From: a virus
Taxonomy: Duplodnaviria > Heunggongvirae > Uroviricota > Caudoviricetes
Length of the DNA stretch: 41,687 bases
Strand: one strand, 5' to 3'
IMG/VR virus record: IMGVR_UViG_2585427754_000009
Of the stretch, positions 1 to 40,512 are shown in pieces (the first letter of the stretch is position 1; the number at the start of each line of letters is the position of its first letter). The notes beneath the pieces were generated by a model. That model worked only from the letters and a program-made list of their open reading frames with translations. It ran no database searches and had not been told where the DNA came from. The translations under genes were made by a program, and so were the position numbers.

Positions 1-1164
1 TTACACATCATTAGTACCTTCCTTATTTTTTGACTGGGACAAATTTGGGACCGATGGGTTCAGGATCGAGTCTATTTGCCGTGCGTGTTCGGTAAGGTGA
101 TTAGGTGCAAGGTGAGCATATCGACGAACCATTTCGATAGACTCCCAGCCTCCCATTTCCTGTAACACTGACAACGGGACTCCGGCTTGAACCAGCCAAC
201 TTGCCCAGGTGTGTCTCAAGTCGTGAAATCTGAAATCATCAATACCAGCCCGTCTCAGCGCCGCTTTCCAGGCTGTGTTTGCGTCATACCGCATCTTCCT
301 TACTGTTGGCGCTTTCGTTCCGTCTGGTTTGGTACAGCTTTCCTTGTACACAAATACCCAACGGTGATGATTCCCGATTTGTTTTTTCAATACGCGACAT
401 GCAGTATCATTCAGCGCAACGCCAATTGCGCGGTTTGATTTACTCTCTTCCGGGTTTATCCATGCCACCCGGCGCTGCATATCTATTTGTTGCCATTCAA
501 GGTTGATGATGTTCGAGCGTCTTAAGCCTGTTGCCAGTGCAAATTCAACAACAGACTTTAATGGCTCCGGACATTCATCAATCAGCCTTTGTGCTTCATG
601 GGGCTCCAGCCAGCGGATCCGTTTATTCTTTGGTTGAGGCACTTTAATAATTGGTGCCTTATCCAGCATTTTCCATTCACGCTCTGCGGCTCTTAGTAGG
701 GCCTTTATAAATGAAAGATGCGTAGCCTTCGTTGCAACGGACGCTGGTTTTGGCGTGTATTCTGGAACAGGTTTCCCTTTTTTTCTGCATGCTTCTGCCC
801 TGAGTTTCCAGTTTTCCTCATGACGCCGGTTCGTCATTTTCTGCATTGCTGAATAAATTTTTGATTCAGTAATGTCTCTTAGTTGCATTCCTGCGAAATG
901 TTGAAGCCAGAATCCGATCCGGCTTTTGTCATCGTCCAGTGATTTTTTATGTGCTTTCTCTTCAAGCCACCTGACACACGCTTCCTCGAACGTTATATCA
1001 GGTATTTCACCAAGTTTGCTGACCCGCCATGCTTCAGCCTTTAGCTTGTCATGGAGTTCTGTCGCCTGCCTTTTGTCCTTTGTTCCAAGAGACTGTTTAA
1101 ATCTTTTACCGTTCGGCAATGTGAAACTGGCGTACCATATTTCACCTCTGCGGAAGAGTGACAT
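1..1164 (-). CDS. int: Tyrosine integrase, P22/SfV-type
   Basis: 387-aa ORF with stop at 1-3. N-terminus [14 protein letters not shown] and C-terminal HDLRHTWAS...MVRRYAHL (R-H-R-Y recombinase signature). Recognised from memory as P22-type Int. Last gene of the leftward operon; 5' end overlaps xis. Confidence 0.95.
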
Positions 1165-2058: not shown

Positions 2059-2585
2059 TTGCGTAACTCCGATAACTCGTTAAAGCGTTCCATAAACATC
2101 CCGTAGGCATGGCCCGGTGCCAGTGGAATCACGTTGAACATCTCTGTTGCCGGGATACCTTCCAGTACAGGCCAGAAAGAGCCATCATCAAGCCCGAGAT
2201 CGCGGCGTTCGGTTGCCAGCATGATGAGATCGGCATATTTCACGGGCGTACTCATAACTGGGGGTAACCCGTATTTCTCACGGATTACGGCGTCTATTTT
2301 TTCTTCCATTTGTTTATAGTCAGGAAGAAGGCGTTTCAGTGGTGCGGGAATGTCCTGGCAATACGCTTCTGTTGCATCATGCATTAACGCTTCAAAAGCA
2401 AATTCCTGCGGCACCAGCTGGCTGCAAAGAACCGCATGTTGGGCGACGCTGTAGAAGTGCGAAAGATGACCGGCAAAGCGACAGATATTTGAAAGGGAAA
2501 CCGCGATATCGTTAATATCGATGTCGTCTTTATTTATCCTGTCATAATAAAAATGCTTCCCGGAAAAAGTTTTAATAAATGACAT
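2049..2585 (-). CDS. HD-domain phosphohydrolase (YfdR-like 5'-deoxynucleotidase, 178 aa)
   Basis: Internal start MSFIKTFSG with GGAG 7 nt upstream (longer ORF reaches 2612). H..HD metal-binding motif (LMHDATEAY) and further His/Asp residues typical of the HD superfamily. Confidence 0.8.
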   Translation of the reverse strand: MSFIKTFSGKHFYYDRINKDDIDINDIAVSLSNICRFAGHLSHFYSVAQHAVLCSQLVPQEFAFEALMHDATEAYCQDIPAPLKRLLPDYKQMEEKIDAVIREKYGLPPVMSTPVKYADLIMLATERRDLGLDDGSFWPVLEGIPATEMFNVIPLAPGHAYGMFMERFNELSELRKCA

Positions 2586-5040: not shown

Positions 5041-6096
5041 GGCTTTGTTGAATAAATAAGATTTCGTGCGAACGACCCTGTAGCTGGCTGGATTTTCAGG
5101 CAATACGCACGCTTTCTGGCATCCCAGCCTTTGTCATCCTGTTCAACGCACGCACCATGGCCATAGCTTCCGCTACCTGACCATCGTAGTCACGCAGCGT
5201 CAGTGAATCTCCCAACAACTGCTTCATTCTGTACATTGCCGTTTCCGCTATCGAGCGACGGTTATATTCCGTTGTCCATTTCCACCGTGCATTGCTTCCG
5301 CTCAGCCGCTGATTAGCAACGGCACGGTTGCGGTCTGCGTACTCACCGGGCCAGTAACCTGCTCCTTTTCGGGGAGGAATAAGCGCGCTGATTTTTTTGC
5401 GGCGCAGTTCATCGTGACAGAGCCGGGTATCGTAAGCCCCGTCTGCCGCGGCTGCCCTGATTTTTCTGTGAGTCTGCCGGATAAGGCCCGGGAAGGCTTC
5501 TGAGTCCGTGACGTTATTCAGCGACAGGTCTGCACAGACAACTTCATGTGTGTTGCTGTCAACAGCAAGATGCAACTTTCGCCAGATACGACGGCGCTCT
5601 TTGCCGTGCTTTCTGACTTTCCATTCGCCTTCACCAAAGACCTTCAGCCCGGTGGAATCAATCACCAGGTGTGCGATTTCACCCCGGGTGGACGTTTTGA
5701 AACTGACATTAACCGACTTTGCCCGCTTACTGACACTGGTGTAATCCGGGCAGCGCAACGGAACGTTCATCAGGGCAAAAATGGAATCAATAAAACCCTG
5801 CGCAGCCCGCAGGGTCAGCCGGAATACGCGTTTAATCACCAGAACGGTGGTGATGGCGAGATCAGAATAGCGCTGGGGCCTTCCTCGTGATGAAGGCGTT
5901 GCCGACTCATACCAGGCCTGAATCGCTTCATCATCCAGCCAGAAAGTGAGGGAGCCACGGTTGATGAGAGCTTTGTTGTAGGTGGACCAGTTGGTGATTC
6001 TGAACTTTTGCTTTGCCACGGAATGGTCTGTGTTGTCGGGAGGATGCGTGATCTGATCCTTCAACTCAGCAAAAGTTCGATTTATTCAACAAAGCC
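5041..6096 (-). mobile_element. IS903-like insertion sequence (IS5 family), 1056 bp
   Basis: Terminal inverted repeats GGCTTTGTTGAATAAAT(A/C) at 5041-5058 and 6079-6096 (17 of 18 identical). Single transposase ORF. Flanked by a perfect 9-bp direct repeat. Confidence 0.92.
5096..6064 (-). CDS. IS903-family transposase
   Basis: 322-aa ORF ...QKFRITNWSTYNKALINRGSLTFWLDDEAIQAWY... recognised from memory as IS903/IS102 transposase (DDE). True start may be a few codons inside the ORF. Confidence 0.92.
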   Translation of the reverse strand: MKDQITHPPDNTDHSVAKQKFRITNWSTYNKALINRGSLTFWLDDEAIQAWYESATPSSRGRPQRYSDLAITTVLVIKRVFRLTLRAAQGFIDSIFALMNVPLRCPDYTSVSKRAKSVNVSFKTSTRGEIAHLVIDSTGLKVFGEGEWKVRKHGKERRRIWRKLHLAVDSNTHEVVCADLSLNNVTDSEAFPGLIRQTHRKIRAAAADGAYDTRLCHDELRRKKISALIPPRKGAGYWPGEYADRNRAVANQRLSGSNARWKWTTEYNRRSIAETAMYRMKQLLGDSLTLRDYDGQVAEAMAMVRALNRMTKAGMPESVRIA

Positions 6097-12013: not shown

Positions 12014-13009
12014 GTGACCGTGAGAGCACTACTGACCCCTGAAATTGCCCCGCGTATGGGGATCGTATTGTTCAGGCCAGGTTCAGAGCTGATGCCCTTG
12101 TTTATGCAGGGGCGTGTCCTGCTGGAGCCTGAGCCGGAACGTTATTCATCTTTCGCCAGTGGTGCCGTTCCCGCGGCATCACAACCGCTGGCGGATGATC
12201 CTGCCGTTCGGGCCGTGTTCCGCAATGAGGCAGTGATCCGTCGTGCTGGTGGCGTGGAATGTCTTGAAAGCTGGTTACTTCGTGAAAAAGGCTGCCAGTG
12301 GCTTCATTCCGACTGGCACAGCGAGAACATGACAACAATGCGACACGCTCCGGGCGCAATCCGTCTGTGCTGGCACTGCGATAACCAGCTGCGCGATCAG
12401 TTCACGGAACGGCTGGAATCAATGGCAACGGATAACTGTGCCCGCTGGGTGTTGTCTGTTGTGCGTCGGGATCTCGGTTTTGATGACAGTCACGTTGTGA
12501 CAATGCCGGAACTGTGCTGGTGGCTGATTCGTAATGACCTTGCGGACGCCTTACCGGAAAGTGCAGCCCGTAAGGCACTGAGATTACCGAAGCCTGTTGT
12601 GCCGTCTGTCACCCGGGAAAGTGACCTTGTGCCTTCGGTTCCTGCCACCAGCATCATCCAGGATAAGGCGAAAAAGGTGCTGGCGCTGAAAGTGGATCCG
12701 GAGTCGCCGGAGTCTTTTATGTTACGCCCAAAACGTCGCCGCTGGGTTAATGAAAAGTACACGCGCTGGGTTAAGACACAGCCGTGTGCATGTTGTGGAA
12801 AGCCTGCTGATGATCCCCACCACCTGATAGGTCACGGTCAGGGTGGAATGGGAACAAAAGCGCATGACCTCTTTGTGTTGCCTTTGTGCAGAAAGCATCA
12901 CGACGAGCTGCATGCGGATACCGTGGCATTTGAAGAGAAGTATGGCTCCCAGCTGGAGCTGATATTTCGTTTTATCGATCGTGCGCTGGCAATAGGTGTA
13001 CTGGCGTAA
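12014..13009 (+). CDS. DUF968-family protein with C-terminal Cys/His (HNH-like) motif
   Basis: GTG start. C-terminal CACCGKPADDPHHLIGHGQGGMGTKAHDLFVLPLCRKHHDELH; position in the nin-like region upstream of Q. Confidence 0.6.
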   Translation: MTVRALLTPEIAPRMGIVLFRPGSELMPLFMQGRVLLEPEPERYSSFASGAVPAASQPLADDPAVRAVFRNEAVIRRAGGVECLESWLLREKGCQWLHSDWHSENMTTMRHAPGAIRLCWHCDNQLRDQFTERLESMATDNCARWVLSVVRRDLGFDDSHVVTMPELCWWLIRNDLADALPESAARKALRLPKPVVPSVTRESDLVPSVPATSIIQDKAKKVLALKVDPESPESFMLRPKRRRWVNEKYTRWVKTQPCACCGKPADDPHHLIGHGQGGMGTKAHDLFVLPLCRKHHDELHADTVAFEEKYGSQLELIFRFIDRALAIGVLA

Positions 13010-13022
13010 GTGGAGAACGAGC

Positions 13023-13775
13023 ATGAACCTTGAAGCCTTACCGAAATATTACTCCCCAAAATCTCCAAAATTGAGCGATGACGCACCGGCGACAGGCTCT
13101 GGTGGTTTAACAATTACGGATGTGATGGCTGCGCAGGGGATGGTGCAGTCGAAAGCACCGCTTGGGTTTGCCTTATTCCTGGCAAAAGTTGGTGTTCAGG
13201 ATCCTCAGTTTGCGATTGAAGGTCTGCTCAATTACGCGATGGCACTGGATAACCCGACATTGAATAAATTGAGTGAAGAAACCCGGCTACAGATTATTCC
13301 TTACCTTGTGAATTTTGCCTTTGCTGATTATTCCAGGTCTGCGGCAAGTAAGGCTCGCTGTGAGCATTGTGCTGGTACTGGATTTCATAATGTATTGCGC
13401 GAAGTGGTGAAACACTCCAGAAGCGGGGAATCTGTTATCAAGGAAGAGTGGGTGAAGGAACTATGTCAGCATTGTCATGGTAAGGGAGAAGTCAGCACAG
13501 CGTGCAGAGGGTGTAAGGGTAAAGGTATTGTCCTGGATGAAAAAAGGACCCGGCTTCATGGCACGCCTGTTTATAAGATTTGTGGGCGTTGCAATGGAAA
13601 TCGGTTTAGCCGTTTACCAACCACACTGGCGCGGCATCATGTCCAGAAGCTGGTACCAGACCTGACGGATTATCAGTGGTACAAAGGATATGCAGATGTC
13701 ATTGATAAACTGGTGACAAAGTGCTGGCAGGAAGAAGCATATGCTGAGACGCAATTAAGAAAAGTGACGAGATAA
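13023..13775 (+). CDS. Q: Late-gene antiterminator Q
   Basis: Start MNLEALPKYY with GGAGA RBS. Paired CxxC zinc-finger motifs (CEHCAGTG, CQHCHGKGE, CRGCKGKG, CGRCNG). Immediately followed by promoter and terminator. Confidence 0.8.
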   Translation: MNLEALPKYYSPKSPKLSDDAPATGSGGLTITDVMAAQGMVQSKAPLGFALFLAKVGVQDPQFAIEGLLNYAMALDNPTLNKLSEETRLQIIPYLVNFAFADYSRSAASKARCEHCAGTGFHNVLREVVKHSRSGESVIKEEWVKELCQHCHGKGEVSTACRGCKGKGIVLDEKRTRLHGTPVYKICGRCNGNRFSRLPTTLARHHVQKLVPDLTDYQWYKGYADVIDKLVTKCWQEEAYAETQLRKVTR

Positions 13776-14369: not shown

Positions 14370-15422
14370 ATGAAAAATACTGTAAAAATAAACAGTATTG
14401 ATTTAATCAACGCTGATTGCCTGCATTTTATTCAGTCCCTGCCTGATGATTCCATTGACCTGATAGTTACCGATCCGCCGTACTTCAAAGTGAAGCCCAA
14501 CGGTTGGGACAATCAGTGGAAAGGGGACGAAGATTACCTTAAGTGGCTGGACCACTGTCTGGCTCAGTTCTGGCGGGTGTTAAAACCTGCCGGAAGCCTT
14601 TACCTGTTCTGTGGACATCGCCTGGCATCTGATATCGAGATCATGATGCGTGAACGTTTCAACGTGCTTAACCATATCATCTGGGCGAAGCCGTCCGGAC
14701 GATGGAACGGGTGTAATAAAGAAAGCCTGCGGGCATATTTCCCCGCTACAGAGCGCGTTCTGTTTGCTGAACATTACCAGGGGCCATATCGCGGCAAAAG
14801 TGACGGCTATGCGGAAAAAGAAAGGGAACTCAAACAGCACATAATGGCACCGCTGATATCGTATTTCAGGGATGCACGTGCCGAACTGGGTATAACGGCA
14901 AAACAGATTGCCGAAGCCACTGGTAAGAAAAACATGGTTTCCCACTGGTTTGGTGCCAGTCAGTGGCAGTTGCCGAATGAGGCTGACTACCGGAAGTTGC
15001 AGGCACTGTTTTCCCGTATAGCGGCAGAGAAGTTTCAGGAACAACAACTGGAACAGACACACCACCAGCTGGTGGCATCTTATGATTCACTGAATCGCAA
15101 ATATTCTGAATTGCTGGATGAGTTTAAATCTCTCCGGCGCTATTTCTCCGTATCAGTCTCCGTGCCTTATACCGATGTCTGGACGCATAAACCCGTTCAG
15201 TTCTACCCGGGTAAACATCCGTGTGAGAAACCGGCGGATATGCTCCGGCAAATAATCAATGCCAGTAGTCGACCAGGTGATCTGGTTGCTGATTTTTTTA
15301 TGGGATCTGGTTCCACAATAAAAGCAGCAATGGAGCTGGGGCGTCGGGCGTTAGGTGTTGAGCTTGAGTCAGATCGGTTTAACCAGACAGTGAAAGAGGT
15401 AAGTGAACTGGTGGGGAAATAA
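14370..15422 (+). CDS. Orphan DNA methyltransferase (N6A/N4C type, beta-class motif order)
   Basis: DPPY catalytic motif near the N-terminus (DLIVTDPPYF) and AdoMet motif FxGSGST near the C-terminus (FFMGSGSTIKAAMELGR). No adjacent nuclease gene. Confidence 0.8.
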   Translation: MKNTVKINSIDLINADCLHFIQSLPDDSIDLIVTDPPYFKVKPNGWDNQWKGDEDYLKWLDHCLAQFWRVLKPAGSLYLFCGHRLASDIEIMMRERFNVLNHIIWAKPSGRWNGCNKESLRAYFPATERVLFAEHYQGPYRGKSDGYAEKERELKQHIMAPLISYFRDARAELGITAKQIAEATGKKNMVSHWFGASQWQLPNEADYRKLQALFSRIAAEKFQEQQLEQTHHQLVASYDSLNRKYSELLDEFKSLRRYFSVSVSVPYTDVWTHKPVQFYPGKHPCEKPADMLRQIINASSRPGDLVADFFMGSGSTIKAAMELGRRALGVELESDRFNQTVKEVSELVGK

Positions 15423-15499: not shown

Positions 15500-15835
15500 A
15501 TGCCTCATAACCCAAATACCTGGCCGGACTGGCTGGAGTTGTTCCAGAGCTGGTGGCGTGGAGATACGCCGCTGGGCGCAGTGATTATGTCGATTGTTAT
15601 GGCTGGTTTGCGTATTGCCTATTTTGGTGGTGGTGGCGGCTGGAAACGAAAAACACTCGAAATTTTGCTCTGTGGCGCTCTGACGCTGACCTTTGCATCC
15701 GCGCTTGAGTATGTCGGATGGCCTAAATCGCTTTCTGTTGCCATTGGTGGTGGGGTGGGGCTGATCGGGGTCGATGCAATTCGTGGGGCTGCAATGAGAG
15801 TAATCGGTAACAAGTTTGGTGGCTCTAAGGAGTAA
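15500..15835 (+). CDS. Holin (three predicted transmembrane segments)
   Basis: ATG at 15500 (MPHNPNTW...). Hydrophobic segments LGAVIMSIVMAGLRIAYF, LEILLCGALTLTFASALEYV, LSVAIGGGVGLIGVDAI. Directly upstream of the endolysin. The GTG at 15428 is an alternative start. Confidence 0.7.
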   Translation: MPHNPNTWPDWLELFQSWWRGDTPLGAVIMSIVMAGLRIAYFGGGGGWKRKTLEILLCGALTLTFASALEYVGWPKSLSVAIGGGVGLIGVDAIRGAAMRVIGNKFGGSKE

Positions 15836-15838
15836 TTT

Positions 15839-16315
15839 ATGCAGGTACTAAATTCCCAGCGTAAAGCTTTCCTCGATATGGTGGCATGGTCAGAAGGAAC
15901 GGATAATGGACGGCAACCGACATGTAACCACGGTTATGACGTTATTGTCGGTGGTGAACTCTTCACTGATTACTCCGACCACCCTCGCAAACTTGTCACG
16001 CTAAACCCAAAACTTAAATCAACGGCTGCTGGACGCTACCAGATTCTTTCCCGATGGTGGGATGCTTACCGTAAACAGCTTGGTCTGAAAGACTTCTCCC
16101 CCAAAAGCCAGGACGCAGTGGCATTGCAGCAGATTAAAGAGCGTGGTGCTTTACCGATGATTGATCGCGGTGATATCCGTCAGGCTATCGATCGTTGCAG
16201 CAATATCTGGGCTTCACTGCCGGGCGCAGGTTACGGTCAGTATGAACATAAAATCGGTGACCTGATTGCCCGATTTAAAGAGGCTGGTGGGGTGGTAAAT
16301 GAAGTTGAGTTATAA
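15839..16315 (+). CDS. R: Endolysin, lambda R-type lytic transglycosylase
   Basis: 158-aa product near-identical to lambda R from memory (NSQRKAFLDMVAWSEGTDNGRQ...GYDVIVGGELFTDYSDHPRK). AAGGAG RBS. Confidence 0.93.
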   Translation: MQVLNSQRKAFLDMVAWSEGTDNGRQPTCNHGYDVIVGGELFTDYSDHPRKLVTLNPKLKSTAAGRYQILSRWWDAYRKQLGLKDFSPKSQDAVALQQIKERGALPMIDRGDIRQAIDRCSNIWASLPGAGYGQYEHKIGDLIARFKEAGGVVNEVEL

Positions 16316-16691
16316 GCTGATTATCGCTGCTTTTTTCGTTACTGCCATTGGTTCTTTCATCTGGTCAGCCAACTACTACTACAGCAAATATCAGTACGAA
16401 AAGAAACGTGCTGATGAGGCTGTACAAAATGCTGAATCAGCAACTGCCATTACCAATAACGTCCTGCAATCAATGCAAATCGTCAATACAGTTTTGGAGG
16501 CTAACCAGCATGCAAAACAGCAGATCGCACTGGAGTCACAGAGAACCCAGGAAGATATCAAAGTGGCTGTTGCGGATGATGATTGCGCTTCACGCCCTGT
16601 GCCTGATGTCGCTGCTGACCGGTTGCGGAAGTACGCGGACAGTATACGTGCAGGTTCCAACGATACCGTTACCGGCGAACCTGCTCGCTGA
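16299..16691 (+). CDS. Rz: Rz i-spanin
   Basis: N-terminal TM (LIIAAFFVTAIGSFIW) then coiled-coil periplasmic domain. Start overlaps the end of R. Contains the Rz1 start in the +1 frame. Confidence 0.8.
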   Translation: MKLSYKLIIAAFFVTAIGSFIWSANYYYSKYQYEKKRADEAVQNAESATAITNNVLQSMQIVNTVLEANQHAKQQIALESQRTQEDIKVAVADDDCASRPVPDVAADRLRKYADSIRAGSNDTVTGEPAR

Positions 16692-16854
16692 AACTCCACA
16701 GCCAGTTATACCCAATCCTCTGACTTATGGGGATAGTCTTAGTTTGAATGTAAGTCTGCTATCAGCACTGGGGCTATGTAACCGTGATAAGTCTGATCTT
16801 CGTAGGTTAGGAGAGCAAAAGTACAATCTGCATTTGAATAATAATATTCATTAG
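16576..16854 (+). CDS. Rz1: Rz1 o-spanin lipoprotein (overlapped architecture)
   Basis: MMIALHALCLMSLLTGCGS: signal peptide with lipobox LTGC. Pro-rich mature region. Starts inside Rz in another frame and extends 163 bp past the Rz stop. Confidence 0.7.
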   Translation: MMIALHALCLMSLLTGCGSTRTVYVQVPTIPLPANLLAETPQPVIPNPLTYGDSLSLNVSLLSALGLCNRDKSDLRRLGEQKYNLHLNNNIH

Positions 16855-16931
16855 GTGAAATATTTTTATTTGACTGTTCTAGTTATTATGCTTTTAGTTA
16901 CAATACTCTCACTATTAACAGTGAGGTAAAA

Positions 16932-17486
16932 ATGAACGAAAATTATATTGCATATGAGACACTTGTAGCAAACCGTGCTGCTGCTGAGTGGGCTTGTTGG
17001 GCAATGATTGCATCTTGGGTGAGTGCTGGAGCTACTATTGTTACTTTGTTTTTGGCGTTCAAGGCATTATTTACGTGGCGGGAACAAGAGAAAACAAAAG
17101 TAAAAATAGATTTTAGGAATGCATTAAAGAAATTAAAGACAGCTCTATTATTTATGCCTGTCAATATTGACCCCGAGCAACTCAATGATGAACGAGAGCA
17201 AGTTATTGCGAAATGGCTATTTAAAGATGTAGATCTTATTAGTCAGCAAATTGAGTTGGGAGAAGAGAATGTTAAAAGATTTGATGAGCTTTTGAGTATT
17301 TTCGATTGTTGCCAATCTTCATGGTTTGCGACAGAGCACTTATTTGATAATACTGAGTTAGAAAAAGTTTGGCATGAGTTCGAGTCTAACTTTAATAAAT
17401 ATATAAATGGTGGTGAGAGTAAGGATTTACTTATGAAAATGCTTGATAAGCTCATCTCTTCTAGATTTGTATTTGAGTCAAGATAA
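16932..17486 (+). CDS. Hypothetical membrane-anchored protein (184 aa) on an AT-rich moron
   Basis: GAGGT RBS. One N-terminal TM segment (AEWACWAMIASWVSAGATIVTLFLAFKALF) then a Lys/Glu-rich helical domain. Local GC visibly far below neighbours. Between lysis cassette and HNH/terminase. Confidence 0.6.
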   Translation: MNENYIAYETLVANRAAAEWACWAMIASWVSAGATIVTLFLAFKALFTWREQEKTKVKIDFRNALKKLKTALLFMPVNIDPEQLNDEREQVIAKWLFKDVDLISQQIELGEENVKRFDELLSIFDCCQSSWFATEHLFDNTELEKVWHEFESNFNKYINGGESKDLLMKMLDKLISSRFVFESR

Positions 17487-17536
17487 TTGCCTTTGAGCAT
17501 TTTTCTTTATTATTTTACTTATTATAAATTTTTTAT

Positions 17537-17887
17537 ATGCCCCCTAGAATCCCAAAAGCCTGCCGCGTTCGCGGCTGCCGCAATACCACGACTGACCCGT
17601 CAGGCTACTGCGAAAGCCACAAAAGCGAAGGCTGGAAACAATACAAGCCAGGACAATCCCGTCACCAGCGCGGCTATGGTTCGAAGTGGGATGTTATCCG
17701 CGCGCGTGTGCTGAAGCGTGATAAAGGTTTATGTCAGTTATGTCTGCGTGCTGGTGTGGTGCGTGAGGCGAAAACCGTTGACCACATCATTCCTAAAGCG
17801 CATGGCGGCTCTGATGCCGACAGTAATCTGCAGAGCCTGTGCTGGCCGTGTCATAAGGCGAAGACGGCCCGTGAACGGCTGAAGTAA
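17537..17887 (+). CDS. HNH endonuclease (terminase-associated)
   Basis: Cys-rich N-terminus (CRVRGCRNTTTDPSGYCESH) and HNH core (VDHIIPKAHGGSDADSNLQSLCWPCHKAK). Immediately upstream of the terminase genes. Confidence 0.85.
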   Translation: MPPRIPKACRVRGCRNTTTDPSGYCESHKSEGWKQYKPGQSRHQRGYGSKWDVIRARVLKRDKGLCQLCLRAGVVREAKTVDHIIPKAHGGSDADSNLQSLCWPCHKAKTARERLK

Positions 17888-18012: not shown

Positions 18013-18507
18013 ATGGCTGGAACGACGGGGCGTTCCGGGCGTCGCCCCAAGCCAACGGCGCGCAAGGCGCTGGCCGGAAATCCCGGCAAGCGAGCCCTGA
18101 ACAAAGATGAACCTGTTTTTACGCCCATCAAAGGTGTTGAGCCACCGGAGTGGTTCGCTGAAGAAGATCTCCCTCTCGCTACGATCATGTGGCAACTGAC
18201 AACTAAAGAACTCTGCGGTCAGGGCCTGCTGTGCGTGACTGACCTTGCGGTGCTTGAGCGGTGGTGCGTGGCCTACGAGTTCTGGCGACGTGCCGTGAAA
18301 AATATTGCCAGACAGGGCAACACCATCACCGGTGCAATGGGCGGTATGGTCAAAAATCCGGAGCTGACTGCCAAAAAAGAACAGGAGTCCGAGATGAGCA
18401 GTACGGGGGCAATGCTCGGACTCGACCCCAGCAGCCGCCAGCGTCTGATTGGCCTGGCGGGGAAGAAGAAAGCCACTAACCCGTTTCTGAAAATCATCGA
18501 ATCATGA
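18013..18507 (+). CDS. Terminase small subunit (P27 / HK97 gp1-like)
   Basis: ATG 9 nt after [18 protein letters not shown]... N-terminus typical of P27-family TerS. ATGA coupling to the large subunit. Confidence 0.8.
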
Positions 18508-20237
18508 GCCGGAAATCTTACCCCAACGTAAATGCTGCAAATCAGTATGCCCGGGATGTCGTGCGCGGAAAGATTGTTGCCTGCCAGTTTGTGATTCAGG
18601 CCTGCCAGCGCCATCTTGATGACCTGATGGCGGAAAAAAGTAAGTCGTTTCGTTACCGCTTCGACAAGGACCTGGCTGAACGGGCCGCGAAATTTATTCA
18701 GCTGTTGCCGCACACCAAGGGGGAGTGGGCATTCAAACGGATGCCCATCACGCTGGAGCCGTGGCAGCTATTTGTGATCTGCTGTGCGTTTGGCTGGGTC
18801 AATAAAGGCACCCGGTTGCGCCGCTTCCGGGAGGTGTACACCGAAATCCCCCGTAAGAACGGCAAATCAGCAATCTCTGCCGGTGTTGCCCTGTATTGTT
18901 TTGCCTGTGATAACGAGTTTGGCGCGGAAGTGTATTCCGGTGCCACGACAGAGAAACAGGCGTGGGAAGTCTTTCGCCCGGCACGACTGATGTGTAAACG
19001 CACACCCATGCTGACGGAAGCGTTCGGGATTGAGGTTAACGCCTCAAACATGAACCGTCCGGAGGATGGCGCGCGGTTTGAACCGCTGATCGGCAACCCA
19101 GGTGATGGTTCATCACCCCACTGTGCCGTGGTTGATGAATATCACGAGCATGCCACCGATGCGCTTTATACCACAATGCTTACCGGGATGGGGGCGCGAC
19201 GTCAGCCACTGATGTGGGCCATTACTACTGCCGGGTACAACATTGAGGGGCCGTGCTACGACAAACGGCGGGAAGTTATCGAGATGCTCAACGGTTCGGT
19301 ACCCAACGATGAACTGTTCGGGATCATCTATACCGTTGACGAAGGTGACGACTGGACCAACCCACTGGTGCTGGAAAAAGCCAACCCGAATATCGGGGTG
19401 TCGGTTTACCGTGAGTTTTTGTTAAGTCAGCAACAGCGTGCGAAAAATAACGCCCGTCTGGCAAACGTCTTTAAAACAAAACACCTCAATATCTGGGTGT
19501 CGGCGCGTTCGGCGTATTTCAACCTGGTGAGCTGGCAGAGCTGCGAGGATAAATCACTGACTCTTGAGCAATTCGAGGGGCAGCCGTGCATTCTGGCCTT
19601 TGACCTGGCGCGTAAACTGGATATGAACAGCATGGCGCGACTTTATACCCGCGAGATTGACGGTAAAACGCATTACTACAGTGTGGCCCCGCGTTTCTGG
19701 GTACCGTATGACACGGTGTACAGCGTCGAGAAAAATGAAGATCGCCGGACAGCCGAACGCTTTCAGAAATGGGTGGAAATGGGCGTCCTGACCGTTACCG
19801 ATGGTGCAGAGGTGGATTATCGCTACATCCTCGAAGAGGCCAAAGCGGCGAACAAAATCAGCCCGGTCAGCGAGTCACCCATCGACCCCTTCGGGGCGAC
19901 CGGGCTGTCACATGACCTTGCTGATGAAGACCTGAATCCCGTCACTATCTTCCAGAACTTCACCAATATGTCCGATCCGATGAAAGAGCTGGAAGCAGCG
20001 ATTGAATCGGGACGTTTTCATCATGACGGCAATCCCATCATGACCTGGTGTATCGGCAACGTGGTCGGCAAAAACATGCCGGGTAACGATGATGTGGTGA
20101 AACCCGTCAAAGAGCAGGCGGAAAACAAAATTGACGGTGCAGTTGCGCTGATTATGGCGGTTGGCAGAGCCATGCTGTACGAGAAAGAAGACACGCTGTC
20201 TGATCACATTGAGTCCTACGGGATCCGCTCGCTTTAA
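18504..20237 (+). CDS. Terminase large subunit
   Basis: 577-aa ORF with ATPase region ([18 protein letters not shown]... Walker A-like) and C-terminal nuclease region; position after TerS. Confidence 0.9.
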
Positions 20238-29832: not shown

Positions 29833-30279
29833 TTACTGTGCGAACACGCAATTTCGGCCTGATGGGGAGCCGACAATTCTGGACATTTTTTCGCAAATAA
29901 CAGTTACTTGTTCTCCTTTTTTAAGAGCAGCAGCTGTTGATTTTTCAGAGTCTTGCATCTCCATTCTTGCTGGCATGAATTCATTTTCAGTTCTGAATTT
30001 AATAATTATAGAGTCAGTAAAGTCCTTATCAATGGATTGTACGATACCTCTAACGGCGATTAATTTACCTTTTAACTGTTCATCGGTAGCGACTTCATTT
30101 TCTTCATACTCTTTAAACAGCTGTCGAGCAGTAGTGTTGTAGATTTCTTTTTGCGGTGCCGCAGCTTCCGTATCGGATGAGTATGAAGAATTAGAGCCTT
30201 TATCGTTATTGCCTGCAAAATATCCAATAATCACCAACCCGATGAAAATATATAAAATCCATTTTAATAATTTCTTCAT
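29833..30279 (-). CDS. Hypothetical signal-anchored protein (148 aa) on a reverse-oriented AT-rich moron
   Basis: AAGGTGA RBS. N-terminal hydrophobic anchor (LLKWILYIFIGLVIIGYFAG) then a Ser-rich linker and a small beta-rich domain. Only minus-strand gene inside the plus-strand tail operon. AT-rich. Confidence 0.6.
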   Translation of the reverse strand: MKKLLKWILYIFIGLVIIGYFAGNNDKGSNSSYSSDTEAAAPQKEIYNTTARQLFKEYEENEVATDEQLKGKLIAVRGIVQSIDKDFTDSIIIKFRTENEFMPARMEMQDSEKSTAAALKKGEQVTVICEKMSRIVGSPSGRNCVFAQ

Positions 30280-37817: not shown

Positions 37818-39707
37818 TTAATCGTGTTTTGGCCATACTTTCAATGCAATTTCCCCCAACTTTTTACCCCGCTCCAGGATTTCATCCTCATCCCATTTAT
37901 CCTTAACTATAAGTGGAATGTTCAGTCGTAGATTGGTGTGGACGATGAGAGCATCACGTTTTTTCAGAAATACAGCATTCTGAACAGAACGGTTTACGCT
38001 AAGGTTAAGCAAAGTTAGATTTCCCAACGTAGCTATCGCTTGTTGCCGTTTCCTTACCAGTAGCTGTTCAGGGGTAAGATCGGTTCCAGACAGAACAATT
38101 TGGTTCAATACCGTAGCATCTGAATTTGTCACCATATGACCATTTTCGAGAGGCCAACAGGAATACCAACTTTGAGGCATAAGATGATCGATATCGAGGT
38201 TAGAAAGATTTGGAACATCAGGCTTCTCTGTCTTCACTTGGCGACAAAGTTCTCTTTCAAGTTCCGTTAACATTGAGCGCATTTTCGGTGCGTCGAGCCT
38301 GCCAGGATAAAGTGGAGCATTGATGCAAGCGTTGAGAAATTCTGAGTCCCCAGGCCAACGTGAGGCTTCGCCATTTAAGCTATTGAGGATATTACGTAAC
38401 TCAACACTGGAAATTTCCGTTTTAGACAAGTGCCGCAATACATTCATAAATACATTGTTGTAATTCTTTGGCGTCAGGCCACATACGGCTCTTCGTACTA
38501 CGTAGGAGACAAGATCATTATACATGGCTGCTTTCTCATCATCGGCGATGTTAGCTATCGAAATGAACAAAGCAAGCGGATAAAGTGTCGTCACATCATA
38601 GGCTGCGATGCGATGTCCAAAGTGTGAGATGGGGGTTGTGCCAAAACCACCAACCAATTCTTTATATTGTGATGCATATTGTTTGAGGCGCTTTACTTGC
38701 AGATCTGCTCGTTGTGAAGGCAAGTCCTTACTTACATAATCACGATACTCATTGTAAAGACGAGACAGATCGATTTCACGTTGCCTTTCTGATTGCAATG
38801 TCGCATGCACTAGCCACTCCATGCGTGGTTTATTAATACGACCACGACGTTGTCTTTCTGACCAGTACGTATCTTCAAAGATCTTCCACTCATTCTCATA
38901 TAATTCAACAGCATTAATATTTTCATGTTCAGCGCACATAAAAATATAATTGCGAATAAGATCTGTGGCATGAAGTTCCGCACCTCTGCCATTTAATGTT
39001 TCAAAAATTATTTGAGCGTCATCTTCAGCCTCGAGAAATATGCTTACTAGTTTCAGATCCGTCAAGACAGCCTCAATTAATGCTACAGCATTTTCTCGTG
39101 GTGAGTGATTTTCTATTTTAATCCACTTTATAAAGGCTTCAGTAAAAAAACATAATGCTTCTAGTGATGGCGGGTGATTAAAATGCTTACGCAACGTACC
39201 ATGCTGCGTGAAACTATCAGAGAATACATTCCGGATATCGTCAATATTTTCAACATTAAAACTTTGAATAAAATGAGTTTGATCCCGAAAAGTTGGCCAC
39301 AGTTTGAAGCGCTCTACTTCTTTATTTCGCATTGTGTCTTCGTTTGAGTTTTTCAGGCAAGACGAAATGAGAGGCTCTAAGTTGGAAAGATCTGTCGCAC
39401 GTAATGCTAATCGGATGGATGCCAGAACATATTGAAGAGTGGTCAATCGTTGCTGACCATCAATAATATGTATGGAATCTACACCTAATAATCCTTTTTT
39501 TGGTTGAGGTTCCAGTACCACTGCACCAAGGAAATGGGGAGTTGGTTTTGTACCCGAGAGCCGGGATTGTGCTTTCTCTAGGATATCCTCCAGTAGAGCT
39601 GACCATTGGTTTCGCTGAGTCCATACATAGGCACGTTGATAGAATGGAACGCAGTATTGTCGGCGGTCTTGAAAAAGTTGTTGGACAGTTAGCGTCTCGG
39701 ATTTCAT
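37818..39707 (-). CDS. GmrSD-family type IV restriction endonuclease (DUF262 + DUF1524)
   Basis: N-terminal DUF262 motifs (VPFYQRAYVW and IIDGQQRLTTL). C-terminal DUF1524 His-Me finger region (DIDHLMPQSW...LGNLTLLNLSVNRSV). Start at MKSETLTVQQ (39705-39707) preferred over 39767. AT-rich island. Confidence 0.8.
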   Translation of the reverse strand: MKSETLTVQQLFQDRRQYCVPFYQRAYVWTQRNQWSALLEDILEKAQSRLSGTKPTPHFLGAVVLEPQPKKGLLGVDSIHIIDGQQRLTTLQYVLASIRLALRATDLSNLEPLISSCLKNSNEDTMRNKEVERFKLWPTFRDQTHFIQSFNVENIDDIRNVFSDSFTQHGTLRKHFNHPPSLEALCFFTEAFIKWIKIENHSPRENAVALIEAVLTDLKLVSIFLEAEDDAQIIFETLNGRGAELHATDLIRNYIFMCAEHENINAVELYENEWKIFEDTYWSERQRRGRINKPRMEWLVHATLQSERQREIDLSRLYNEYRDYVSKDLPSQRADLQVKRLKQYASQYKELVGGFGTTPISHFGHRIAAYDVTTLYPLALFISIANIADDEKAAMYNDLVSYVVRRAVCGLTPKNYNNVFMNVLRHLSKTEISSVELRNILNSLNGEASRWPGDSEFLNACINAPLYPGRLDAPKMRSMLTELERELCRQVKTEKPDVPNLSNLDIDHLMPQSWYSCWPLENGHMVTNSDATVLNQIVLSGTDLTPEQLLVRKRQQAIATLGNLTLLNLSVNRSVQNAVFLKKRDALIVHTNLRLNIPLIVKDKWDEDEILERGKKLGEIALKVWPKHD

Positions 39708-40512
39708 GGTATACCTGTAAGCGACATTGTACAAAAGTGAGGAGTTAATCTGATTTAGAACAATCATTTTATGTTGCTATGATACAACGTATTTGTTACC
39801 GGTTAAGTAAAAAACGCGTCTGAACGCTGACGTTTTAGGGCTTTACTAGTTATTCTTTCTTATCTCTTCATCATCCCATCGGCATCCTGTCGAGGTTGTT
39901 GACTTGTTGTTATTTATTTTGTTTAGGCGCTGTTTAATTATTATTGATGGGACTGGTGGTGAGAGGTGATTGAAACCGCAGACAGGTCGTATGCAAGACG
40001 TGCTGCGGTTGGCTGGTAAATGTTAGATAGTGCGAGTATTGAATGATTTCTAGCCGTTATTGATTTTACGTATTTTTGTATGAGAGGATTTGCATCTCCT
40101 GCCACCGACCCTCCATGACTTTACGCCACTGTCTCTAGGGCTGCTATGTGCCAGGAGCAGCCATTGCTAAGTCCATCCTGTATTGTGCAGGTCAGCTCGT
40201 TTTTAAAGAGTCCGGCCATCATCTTACTGGTACAGACACCATATACTTTGTGACGGTCAGGCTACATATGCACAACTCAACTTATTCATCTATTTTTTGC
40301 TTTAGCATGTCAGTGTTGCTTTCTCGTCGGCGGGTGAGCGGTGACCTGACCTGTCGATAAAGGAACGTAGCACGTTTTATGCAACACCCGCATGCGGCAG
40401 AAAATTATTGCCGAACGTTTACCCCTGTCAACAAGCTTTACTTTCTGAGGCGCGCCAGCCCGCGAGGAAAACAATCTGAACATCAAACAATTAATGACAC
40501 AAGAAATACGAT

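Follow-up and report, generated by a model that had tools for sequence, protein, structure and literature searches.

A low-GC moron cassette encoding a predicted single-pass membrane protein at the lysis–terminase junction of an SfV-like prophage

Introduction

The 'morons' of temperate phages were reportedly defined by Hendrix, Juhala and colleagues from the comparison of HK97 and HK022, with lambda bor and HK97 gene 15 as examples. The characterized small inner-membrane proteins encoded by accessory genes of enterobacterial prophages are mostly exclusion factors (P22 SieA and SieB, lambda RexB and HK97 gp15). Bor and Lom serve lambda in lysogenic conversion. In this paper, we describe positions 16855–17536 of a 41,687-nucleotide stretch of tailed-phage DNA (IMG/VR record IMGVR_UViG_2585427754_000009; the whole stretch is called the window). 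The region carries one gene, which encodes a protein of 184 amino acids (aa). The protein belongs to the family PHROG 6169, corresponding to the UniRef A0A0F7J9G5 cluster ('uncharacterized protein', Enterobacterales).

The region resembles the classic morons in several respects. The DNA is present or absent at one junction among close relatives, its GC content is low, and a single gene is placed within the late operon. A promoter-like element of its own is present, and a terminator of its own is found in relatives of the cassette. Unlike the classic morons, the window copy has lost the terminator, and translation is probably gated by a hairpin which sequesters the Shine–Dalgarno (SD) sequence and whose 5' arm lies over the predicted transcription start. 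The neighbourhood, after Rz/Rz1 and before the packaging genes, is that of lambda bor. However, the 184-aa gene runs in the direction of the late operon and bor runs against it, and the 184-aa protein is neither a lipoprotein nor an outer-membrane protein.

P22 SieA and SieB, lambda RexB, HK97 gp15 and T4 Imm and Sp are similar to the 184-aa protein in that they are small inner-membrane proteins that act alone or nearly so, and their genes are accessory, patchily distributed and AT-rich. In contrast to them, the 184-aa protein does not match SieB, Imm or any other exclusion family annotated in Pfam or PHROG. It is predicted to have one transmembrane (TM) helix and a cytoplasmic bundle of 135 residues, whereas SieA and RexB are polytopic and Sp faces the periplasm. 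The genes of SieA, SieB and RexB are located in immunity or early regions, whereas the 184-aa gene is located at the lysis–terminase junction.

Csx28, the accessory membrane pore of Cas13b (PDB 8GI1), oligomerizes into a pore that depolarizes the membrane during defence. It has a similar size (about 170–190 aa), an N-terminal TM helix and an all-helical cytoplasmic domain, and would be a plausible working analogy for the 184-aa protein. A Csx28-like pore in the strict sense, which would call for a specific fold match, the HEPN-like R-x(4-6)-H motif, linkage to Cas13b and an octameric pore, was rejected. Four-helix-bundle sensor domains (4HB_MCP, NIT/NasR and the histidine-kinase sensor 4K0D) are periplasmic and lie between two TM helices, whereas here one TM helix precedes a bundle predicted to be cytoplasmic. 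They have no sequence similarity to the 184-aa protein, and such bundles recur by convergence.

Results and discussion

Insertion of the cassette at a variable junction

The region 16855–17536 is a horizontally acquired single-gene accessory cassette, or moron, in an SfV-like prophage. This assignment had been proposed in a preliminary description of the DNA, and it is borne out by the insertion of the cassette relative to close relatives, by its foreign composition and by the variability of the slot. It is very probable that the cassette is a functional moron encoding a single-pass membrane protein of PHROG 6169 type.

The region is exactly the gap between the stop codon of the Rz1/LysC gene (16854) and the ATG of the HNH endonuclease gene (17537), in agreement with the position between lysis cassette and HNH/terminase genes given in the preliminary description. 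The GC content is 0.328, compared with 0.505 for the whole window. In a sliding scan of 682-bp stretches (mean 0.507, s.d. 0.058, minimum 0.331 at 16841), the region ranks lowest in the window, about 3 s.d. below the mean, and its description as some 680 bp of AT-rich DNA holds. The only open reading frame (ORF) found in it, again as described earlier, is 16932–17486 on the plus strand (184 aa; GC 0.353, GC at third codon positions 0.31). In the identical region of Escherichia coli FT130 (RefSeq), whose annotation was mapped to the window with position 6001 of that locus (L001) at 16855, this ORF is annotated as hypothetical protein WP_001005132.1.

The late-gene order of the window is that of Shigella phage SfV, with portal, HK97-type protease and capsid genes 3' of the terminase genes. 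In SfV, the Rz1 stop codon and the HNH start are separated by 26 bp, and the gene is missing there. With a query spanning both flanks, matches were obtained in 1256 of 5426 complete E. coli genomes, in many cases to a single flank. The 184-aa gene lies between both flanks in 26 of these 1256 genomes (0.5% of the complete genomes). As only these 26 carry the gene and SfV is without it, the gene is dispensable.

In many E. coli prophages the slot is empty, and the span from flank to flank is 839 bp. Spans of about 1269–1318 bp correspond to a slot holding a GrlR-family gene, and further spans of 1301, 1369, 1396, 1405, 1475, 1557, 1743, 1975 and 2004 bp were observed. At least nine different insert sizes or cargos occur at the slot in SfV-like E. 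coli prophages. The four alternative cargos that were inspected are all low in GC (0.34–0.39) and belong to PHROGs of unknown function. E. coli Sanji carries in the same SfV-type slot a 145-aa distant member of the family with about 25% identity (hmmsearch E = 5.7e-23; PHROG 6169 E = 4e-57). The cassettes of relatives are likewise low in GC, at 0.36–0.41 compared with 0.45–0.58 in their own flanks. The junction had been called a classic moron and defence hotspot. The variable hotspot is confirmed, but the defence part is not, as no alternative cargo matches a known defence family.

In Salmonella phage 118970_sal3, a segment that covers the cassette and reaches into the 3' end of Rz1 on one side and the 5' end of the HNH gene on the other is 98% identical, and the record of this phage annotates different holin and lysin genes. 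The exact 184-aa protein is encoded on at least 1000 public contigs, mostly of Salmonella and also of enterotoxigenic (ETEC) and avian pathogenic (APEC) E. coli strains. Many Salmonella contigs break inside the gene, and the 436-member cluster of the protein includes numerous 'partial' proteins of 60–134 aa. The 77-kb record of 118970_sal3 holds a second, truncated copy (99 aa). According to the contig ends and this second copy, the gene is probably located at a repeat boundary between co-resident prophages.

Protein family and conservation

The 184-aa protein matches the PHROG 6169 profile with E = 1.3e-74 (residues 15–183 on positions 2–165 of 165). PHROG 6169 is annotated as function unknown and has no Pfam entry. 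The earlier statement that the protein resembles no recognized family is therefore corrected in that the family is already catalogued, but it stands for Pfam, NCBIfam, PADLOC and the PDB. An exhaustive HMMER search gave 76 cluster representatives at 50% identity. The source-named members are all 'hypothetical' or 'uncharacterized' and all from Enterobacterales. A scan of species-representative genomes for the family gave one locus only.

Conservation extends over the full length, with 59–70% identity across at least six named genera. In the alignment, the invariant or nearly invariant positions are A42, A45, W49, Q52, E53, K56, F61, P76, W131, E135, W147 and Y157. The median ratio of nonsynonymous to synonymous substitution rates (dN/dS) is about 0.09 over the usable pairs; between genera dN is 0.2–0.3, and synonymous sites are saturated. 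A second E. coli copy shows synonymous differences only. The gene is under strong purifying selection, and a lack of conservation is excluded by the dN/dS ratio and the 76 clusters.

No model of Pfam, NCBIfam or PADLOC matched consistently across 34 family members; PADLOC-DB v2.0.0 was used, which covers systems described up to 2023. The family profile had no match among PDB sequences, Rfam gave no RNA family in the window and 12 related loci, and a literature search on the PHROG 6169/UniRef A0A0F7J9G5 family found nothing relevant. Two matches were examined and rejected. SLATT_1 (NCBIfam NF033634; E = 0.007) scored 16.4 bits against a cutoff of 41 and requires two TM helices rather than one, and the best PADLOC match was CARF_TM (E = 0.021). 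As each was seen in 1 of the 34 members, far under the cutoff and driven by the TM helix, both are regarded as chance matches. Matches to Pfam CoV_RPol_N and CTLH were sub-threshold noise. Homology to a Bor-like lipoprotein or a known lysis accessory protein was also looked for and not found: the N-terminus (MNENYIAYE) has no lipobox, the TM helix starts from residue 20, and no Pfam or PHROG lysis family was matched.

Predicted topology and structure

The 184-aa protein has one hydrophobic span, with the Kyte–Doolittle peak at residues 25–43 between the flanking W20 and W49. The acidic tail before it contains the conserved motif YIAYETLVANR.AA and is missing in roughly one quarter of the family members. 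The TM helix is followed by the basic juxtamembrane motif TWR.QEK.K.K..F[KR], a break at the invariant P76, and the bundle, which contains the motif W131...E135-H-L-F. On average over the 34 members, 1.0 K/R and 3.1 D/E residues precede the TM helix, and 3.8 K/R residues are present in the next 15 residues. The positive-inside pattern was found in all 34 members. According to this enrichment of K/R after the helix, an N-out/C-in topology is predicted, with the bulk of the protein in the cytoplasm. An i-spanin (Rz-like) was considered and rejected: the charge pattern gives the opposite topology in 34 of 34 members, the prophage already has Rz (DUF2570) and Rz1/LysC, and no match to Phage_lysis, DUF2570 or DUF2514 was obtained.

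AlphaFold2 with the family alignment gave a model with a predicted local distance difference test (pLDDT) score of 90.7 and a predicted template-modelling (pTM) score of 0.71. In the model, a continuous helix of residues 3–73 runs through the membrane into a four-helix bundle (81–97, 101–133, 142–158 and 164–176). The hydrophobic span and the all-helical model agree with the single N-terminal TM helix and charged helical domain that had been described from the sequence. Fold searches gave generic helical-bundle matches only, the best being four-helix-bundle sensor domains. Foldseek found nothing significant in the PDB, and in BFVD only a fragment of the same protein.

The conservation of the TM helix is periodic, with a peak at 100–103°. 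A conserved stripe of small residues, S31-T35-T38-A42-A45/L46-W49, runs on into Q52/E53-K56. As the intramembrane part of the stripe has no partner within the monomer model, it would be suited to serve as an intermolecular packing face.

Residues 1–75 are better conserved than the helical bundle, and many distant relatives match residues 1–85 only. The phrog_16957 proteins (177–192 aa; P0013, P0076 and P0116–P0122) share the first approximately 42 residues with 55–65% identity. This part corresponds to the periplasmic tail and TM helix, and an unrelated beta-rich cytoplasmic domain follows. P0013 (L013 6001–6534), the sole phrog_16957 protein whose context was checked, is encoded in the same lysis–terminase slot. 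The phrog_16957 proteins may have arisen by exchange of the domain behind a constant membrane module, or as a recombination mosaic with the 5' end as a handle.

Genomic contexts of relatives

Nine further contexts were examined. In eight of them, the gene or a relative of its N-terminal module is found after the lysis cassette and before the terminase genes, in the same orientation as these. In Citrobacter, holin_2, lysozyme and DUF2514 are followed by DUF1441 and GpA. In Serratia, the lysis genes are holin_2, lysozyme, DUF2570 and LysC, and the packaging side has Terminase_2 and portal_3. Enterobacter kobei has holin_8 plus holin_3_7 and GH19 on the lysis side, and Nu1 and GpA on the packaging side. 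In Citrobacter and metagenomic loci with Terminase_2, several other cargo genes are placed in between. A metagenomic lambda-like phage locus also has a family gene in the slot, and in Enterobacter sp. C2 the gene lies between GH19/Phage_lysis and HNH, TerL and an HK97-type head. Relatives of the gene are thus present in the slot in at least eight unrelated backbones with respect to holin, endolysin, spanin and terminase combinations, which answers positively the check for the same gene in the same slot of unrelated prophages. As no correlation with the type of holin, endolysin, spanin or terminase was found, the protein probably does not work with a particular lysis or packaging partner.

The exception is a 171-aa Serratia member located beside yebY/copD (L010 6001–6516, L011 6001–6516 and L012 3327–3842), with no nearby phage structural genes in two of the three loci. 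This member keeps the TATAAT hexamer, the SD hairpin, the terminator and a downstream palindrome. The context suggests that the copy was retained in a chromosomal island after decay of a prophage.

In Enterobacter sp. C2, a 93-aa gene of the Acb2/Tad1-hairpin family (L076 5640–5921) lies directly upstream of a 153-aa family member, and a Rha/ORF11CD3-type gene precedes it in the same accessory slot. The Acb2/Tad1-hairpin family is an anti-CBASS/anti-Thoeris sponge family. Therefore, the hotspot can also carry counter-defence cargo.

Expression elements

The SD sequence GAGG (16923–16926) is located 5 nt before the ATG, so that the gene has its own ribosome-binding site (RBS), as noticed at first reading. 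What was overlooked is that this sequence is contained in the 3' arm of a hairpin. In the core stem, CTCACT (16908–16913) pairs with AGTGAG (16920–16925), and the free energy of the hairpin is −7.7 kcal/mol (z = −2.70). The SD pairing probability is greater than 0.8 in 16 of 19 leaders, compared with 14% of the 92 genes taken from the same loci as controls (Mann–Whitney p = 2e-9; the sequences are not independent). The stems of relatives differ in sequence (CCTCG/CGAGG, ATCCTCTT/AAGGAGGAT, CCTCCTT/AAGGAGG, CACCTCA/TGAGGTG and others).

Of the 27 distinct homologous leaders compared, 20 have a TAnAAT hexamer at positions −33 to −29 relative to the ATG (shuffles: mean 1.9, maximum 8); in the window it is TACAAT. 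The earlier proposal of this hexamer as a possible −10 element holds as to its presence and conserved position, but no −35 element accompanies it, and a consensus scan found no sigma-70 promoter upstream of the ORF on the plus strand. TTGACT (16870–16875) combined with TACAAT was rejected as a canonical promoter, since the 23-nt spacer is wrong and the scan was negative. With regard to a promoter of its own, the cassette thus has a conserved −10-like hexamer and no canonical −35/−10 pair. A transcript from the second −10-like hexamer, TATTAT, would include the whole hairpin.

Transcription starts about 7 nt downstream of a −10 element. The anti-SD arm begins 0–5 nt after the hexamer and would overlie the expected start. 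The predicted probability of an unpaired SD sequence is 0.07 in read-through RNA and 0.36–0.39 in RNA started 7–8 nt after the hexamer; for the window copy, the values are 0.02 and about 0.55. These folding predictions suggest that transcripts from the weak promoter of the cassette are translated, whereas the late polycistronic RNA would yield little of the protein, and autonomous expression at a low level is expected. Because the RBS would be masked in read-through RNA and open in own-promoter RNA, the protein would be made mainly in the lysogen.

In most relatives, an intrinsic terminator with a GC-rich stem and a T-run, such as CCGCC-N4-GGCGG-T(n), follows the stop codon directly (L004, with −14.7 kcal/mol, and L007, L010, L013, L015, L045, L061 and L064). 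The sequence after the stop codon of the window copy, TTGCCtttGAGCAttttt, forms no hairpin (−1.4 kcal/mol, z = +0.63), and a terminator of its own is therefore lacking here. By sequence comparison, the terminator is ancestral to the cassette and has decayed in the window copy. The late transcript must read through 17487–17536 into the HNH and terminase genes.

Palindromic element at cassette junctions

A conserved palindrome of about 40 nt, GGCATTACAGCAGGCA-TTCACTGAG-TGCCTGTGATAATGC, with 15-bp arms, borders the cassettes of relatives. It contains the extended −10-like sequence TGTGATAAT, and is located 35–40 nt upstream of the family genes, immediately behind the cassette, or in both places. 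In phi80 the palindrome is unannotated and lies directly after rha, between convergent genes. According to the comparison of leaders, window positions 16882–16904 are homologous to the right end of the palindrome plus TACAAT, and only this remnant is left.

A scan of IMG/VR found the palindrome on at least 120 contigs. The first ORF after it belongs to at least 40 unrelated protein clusters among the matches listed, and the sequence directly after ...GATAATGC is completely variable. Many loci hold two or more copies, including the covarying variant GGAGCCA.../...TGGCTTC. Covariation in the stem is modest, 0.155 compared with 0.089 in shuffles (0/500) and at most 0.073 with slid partners. The palindrome matched no Rfam family and was not found in the literature. 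It is possible that it acts as a bidirectional terminator or insulator at junctions, as an operator, or as a recombination joint for the shuffling of cargo. Of 32 cargo families behind the palindrome, nine match any Pfam family; the matches are BamE-like, glycine zipper, Pol III theta, alpha-CTD-like, MptE-like and several DUFs.

Other features of the window

The coordinates of the cassette, its neighbours and the copies of the palindrome are summarized in Table 1.

Table 1. Features of the cassette and its surroundings in the window, and palindrome copies in related loci (positions in the locus named)
Feature	Positions	Strand	Remarks
AT-rich 5' part of the cassette	16855–16931	+	−10-like hexamers TATTAT (16884–16889) and TACAAT (16899–16904)
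SD-sequestering hairpin	16905–16927	+	RNA fold
Gene of the 184-aa predicted bitopic inner-membrane protein	16932–17486	+	PHROG 6169; WP_001005132.1; UniRef A0A0F7J9G5
Residues 1–19, acidic N-terminal tail	16932–16988	+	predicted periplasmic
Residues 20–49, predicted single TM helix (W20...W49)	16989–17078	+	Kyte–Doolittle, AlphaFold2, conservation periodicity
Residues 50–184, basic juxtamembrane motif and four-helix bundle	17079–17483	+	predicted cytoplasmic
3' spacer	17487–17536	+	decayed terminator remnant TTGCCtttGAGCAttttt at 17487–17504
Rz1/LysC o-spanin gene	16576–16854	+	left flank; lipobox LLTGC; E. coli FT130 RefSeq annotation, ORF list
HNH endonuclease gene	17537–17887	+	right flank; Pfam HNH E = 2.8e-16
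P27-family small terminase gene	18013–18507		after the HNH gene
Large terminase gene	18504–20237		after the small terminase gene
Q antiterminator gene	12996–13775		upstream of the cassette
DNA methyltransferase gene	14370–15422		upstream of the cassette
Lambda-family holin gene	15500–15835		upstream of the cassette
GH24 endolysin gene	15839–16315		upstream of the cassette
i-Spanin Rz gene (DUF2570)	16299–16691		upstream of the cassette
Palindrome, L004	5922–5964		
Palindrome, L046	4923–4966		
Palindrome, L060	4912–4954, 5526–5563		
Palindrome, L014	6489–6529		
Palindrome, phi80 (L199)	2501–2540		

The integrase gene of the prophage is located at 1–1164 (minus strand). A DDE transposase (DDE_Tnp_1_5/DDE_Tnp_1) is encoded at 5096–6064 (minus strand), indicating an insertion sequence in the early region. 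A low-GC ORF of 148 aa at 29833–30279 (minus strand) lies amid the tail genes on the opposite strand, contains a tRNA_anti-like (OB-fold) domain (E = 3e-19), and looks like a second moron. A GmrSD-type type IV restriction endonuclease of 649 aa (GmrSD_N E = 7e-34, GmrSD_C E = 5e-20) is encoded at 37818–39767 (minus strand). This known defence gene is placed in another low-GC patch of the same prophage, 3' of the tail-fibre and tail-fibre-assembly genes.

Possible function

As to the function of the 184-aa protein, we tentatively favour a membrane-anchored phage-exclusion protein expressed from the prophage. Of the conjectures considered, defence is the most plausible one. The conserved N-terminal TM module would pack against its own copies or a membrane partner through the small-residue stripe. 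The faster-evolving cytoplasmic bundle, which is swapped for an unrelated domain in some relatives, would give specificity and bind, on the cytoplasmic side of the membrane, a component of either a phage or the host. As the outcome, genome entry would be blocked, or collapse of the membrane would abort the infection. This proposal is based on the modular pattern of conservation, on the throttled expression, which is typical of proteins harmful in excess, and on the independence from the phage backbone. In addition, comparable small inner-membrane proteins of prophages have such functions, and another low-GC defence gene, GmrSD, is present in the same prophage.

Several results weigh against the exclusion proposal. 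No homology to known defence or exclusion proteins was found in PADLOC, Pfam, NCBIfam, PHROG annotations, or PDB sequences and folds. None of the alternative cargos of the E. coli slot matches a defence family, nor does any of the 32 cargo families behind the palindrome. For these reasons, guilt by association with defence fails, and the exclusion or abortive-infection label of the preliminary description is not supported so far. A counter-defence-like gene, that of the Acb2/Tad1 type, lies beside one relative. In the window the promoter has no −35 element and the terminator has decayed, so that the gene is certainly included in the late transcript and expression in the lysogen is a prediction. 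Topology and oligomerization are likewise predictions.

An alternative is that the gene serves lysogenic conversion, in which the membrane-tethered cytoplasmic domain modulates an envelope, transport or stress pathway of the host and gives the lysogen a benefit in fitness or virulence, as Bor and Lom do for lambda or as other cargo does at this hotspot. The gene occupies the position of bor in lambda, and the identical protein is very common in Salmonella and is also found in ETEC and APEC strains. A family gene was kept in the Serratia chromosomal island. The design with own promoter, masked RBS and terminator fits expression in the lysogen. The palindrome cargo is mixed and has no defence signature (BamE-like and other lipoproteins, a glycine-zipper protein, a Pol III theta homologue and an RNA polymerase alpha-CTD-like protein). 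However, the protein has no secretion signal or surface exposure, its bulk being predicted in the cytoplasm, and it has no similarity to host regulator or enzyme families. The fast-diverging and sometimes swapped C-terminal domain on a conserved TM module looks more like an arms race than housekeeping. We consider conversion unlikely.

The gene may instead act in the lytic cycle, as a late membrane protein that adjusts lysis (in the manner of an antiholin or a modulator of the holin) or readies the inner membrane before lysis and packaging. The product is a membrane protein, in nearly all loci the gene follows the lysis cassette within the late operon and has the same orientation, and the window gene, having neither terminator nor canonical promoter, is certainly transcribed late. 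A holin or antiholin as such was rejected, as no holin family of Pfam was matched, and the members occur alike with lambda-type, Phage_holin_2 and holin_8/holin_3_7 cassettes. This variety, which extends to the endolysins (GH24, Phage_lysozyme and GH19) and terminases, also argues against a lytic accessory, as do the lack of a conserved lysis or packaging partner, the lack of a Pfam spanin match and the dispensability of the gene (26 of the 1256 matching E. coli genomes; missing in SfV). Moreover, relatives have their own −10-like element and terminators, and the hairpin is predicted to mask the RBS in late RNA. A lytic role is thus improbable.

Still less probable is a counter-defence function, in which a membrane-anchored inhibitor shields the phage from membrane-acting abortive-infection effectors or other immunity of the host. 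The rapid divergence of the cytoplasmic domain would fit such a function, and so would the Acb2/Tad1-type gene directly before the Enterobacter sp. C2 member, but the latter is a single neighbour observation. Such genes are usually needed early, whereas expression of the 184-aa gene would be late or autonomous. Insulation of the cassette and masking of the RBS favour low steady expression over a burst during infection, and no similarity to known anti-defence proteins was found. A spurious or decaying ORF without function in AT-rich junk DNA, to which the low GC content, the absence of a recognized domain, the decayed terminator and the presence in 0.5% of complete E. coli genomes might point, is refuted by full-length conservation across genera, the 76 clusters, the low dN/dS with saturated synonymous sites, the invariant motifs and the confident fold.

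The exclusion proposal can be extended to the family, as a speculation that we consider unlikely. PHROG 6169 and phrog_16957 would together form one modular family of single-gene membrane-anchored exclusion proteins. A constant oligomerizing TM module would block entry or depolarize the membrane, and interchangeable cytoplasmic domains would act as sensors. The anti-SD arm in the promoter would restrict synthesis to lysogeny, and unrelated temperate phages would exchange the cassettes at the lysis–terminase junction via the 40-nt palindromic joint.

Biological meaning

The element is a moron of the textbook kind in a region whose variability is well known, and as its protein family has an entry already (PHROG 6169), the finding taken alone is no surprise. 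The gene is nevertheless a clean candidate for experiments, as it stands alone, is small, and encodes a confidently modelled protein of a strongly conserved family; the exact protein is widespread on public contigs. The design of the cassette predicts expression in the lysogen only. If the exclusion proposal is true, the protein would represent a new single-gene membrane-based defence with a modular layout of effector plus sensor, and the lysis–terminase junction of enterobacterial prophages would be worth mining. The anti-SD hairpin embedded in the promoter, together with the palindrome before at least 40 unrelated cargo genes, may inform more generally how morons are insulated and exchanged.

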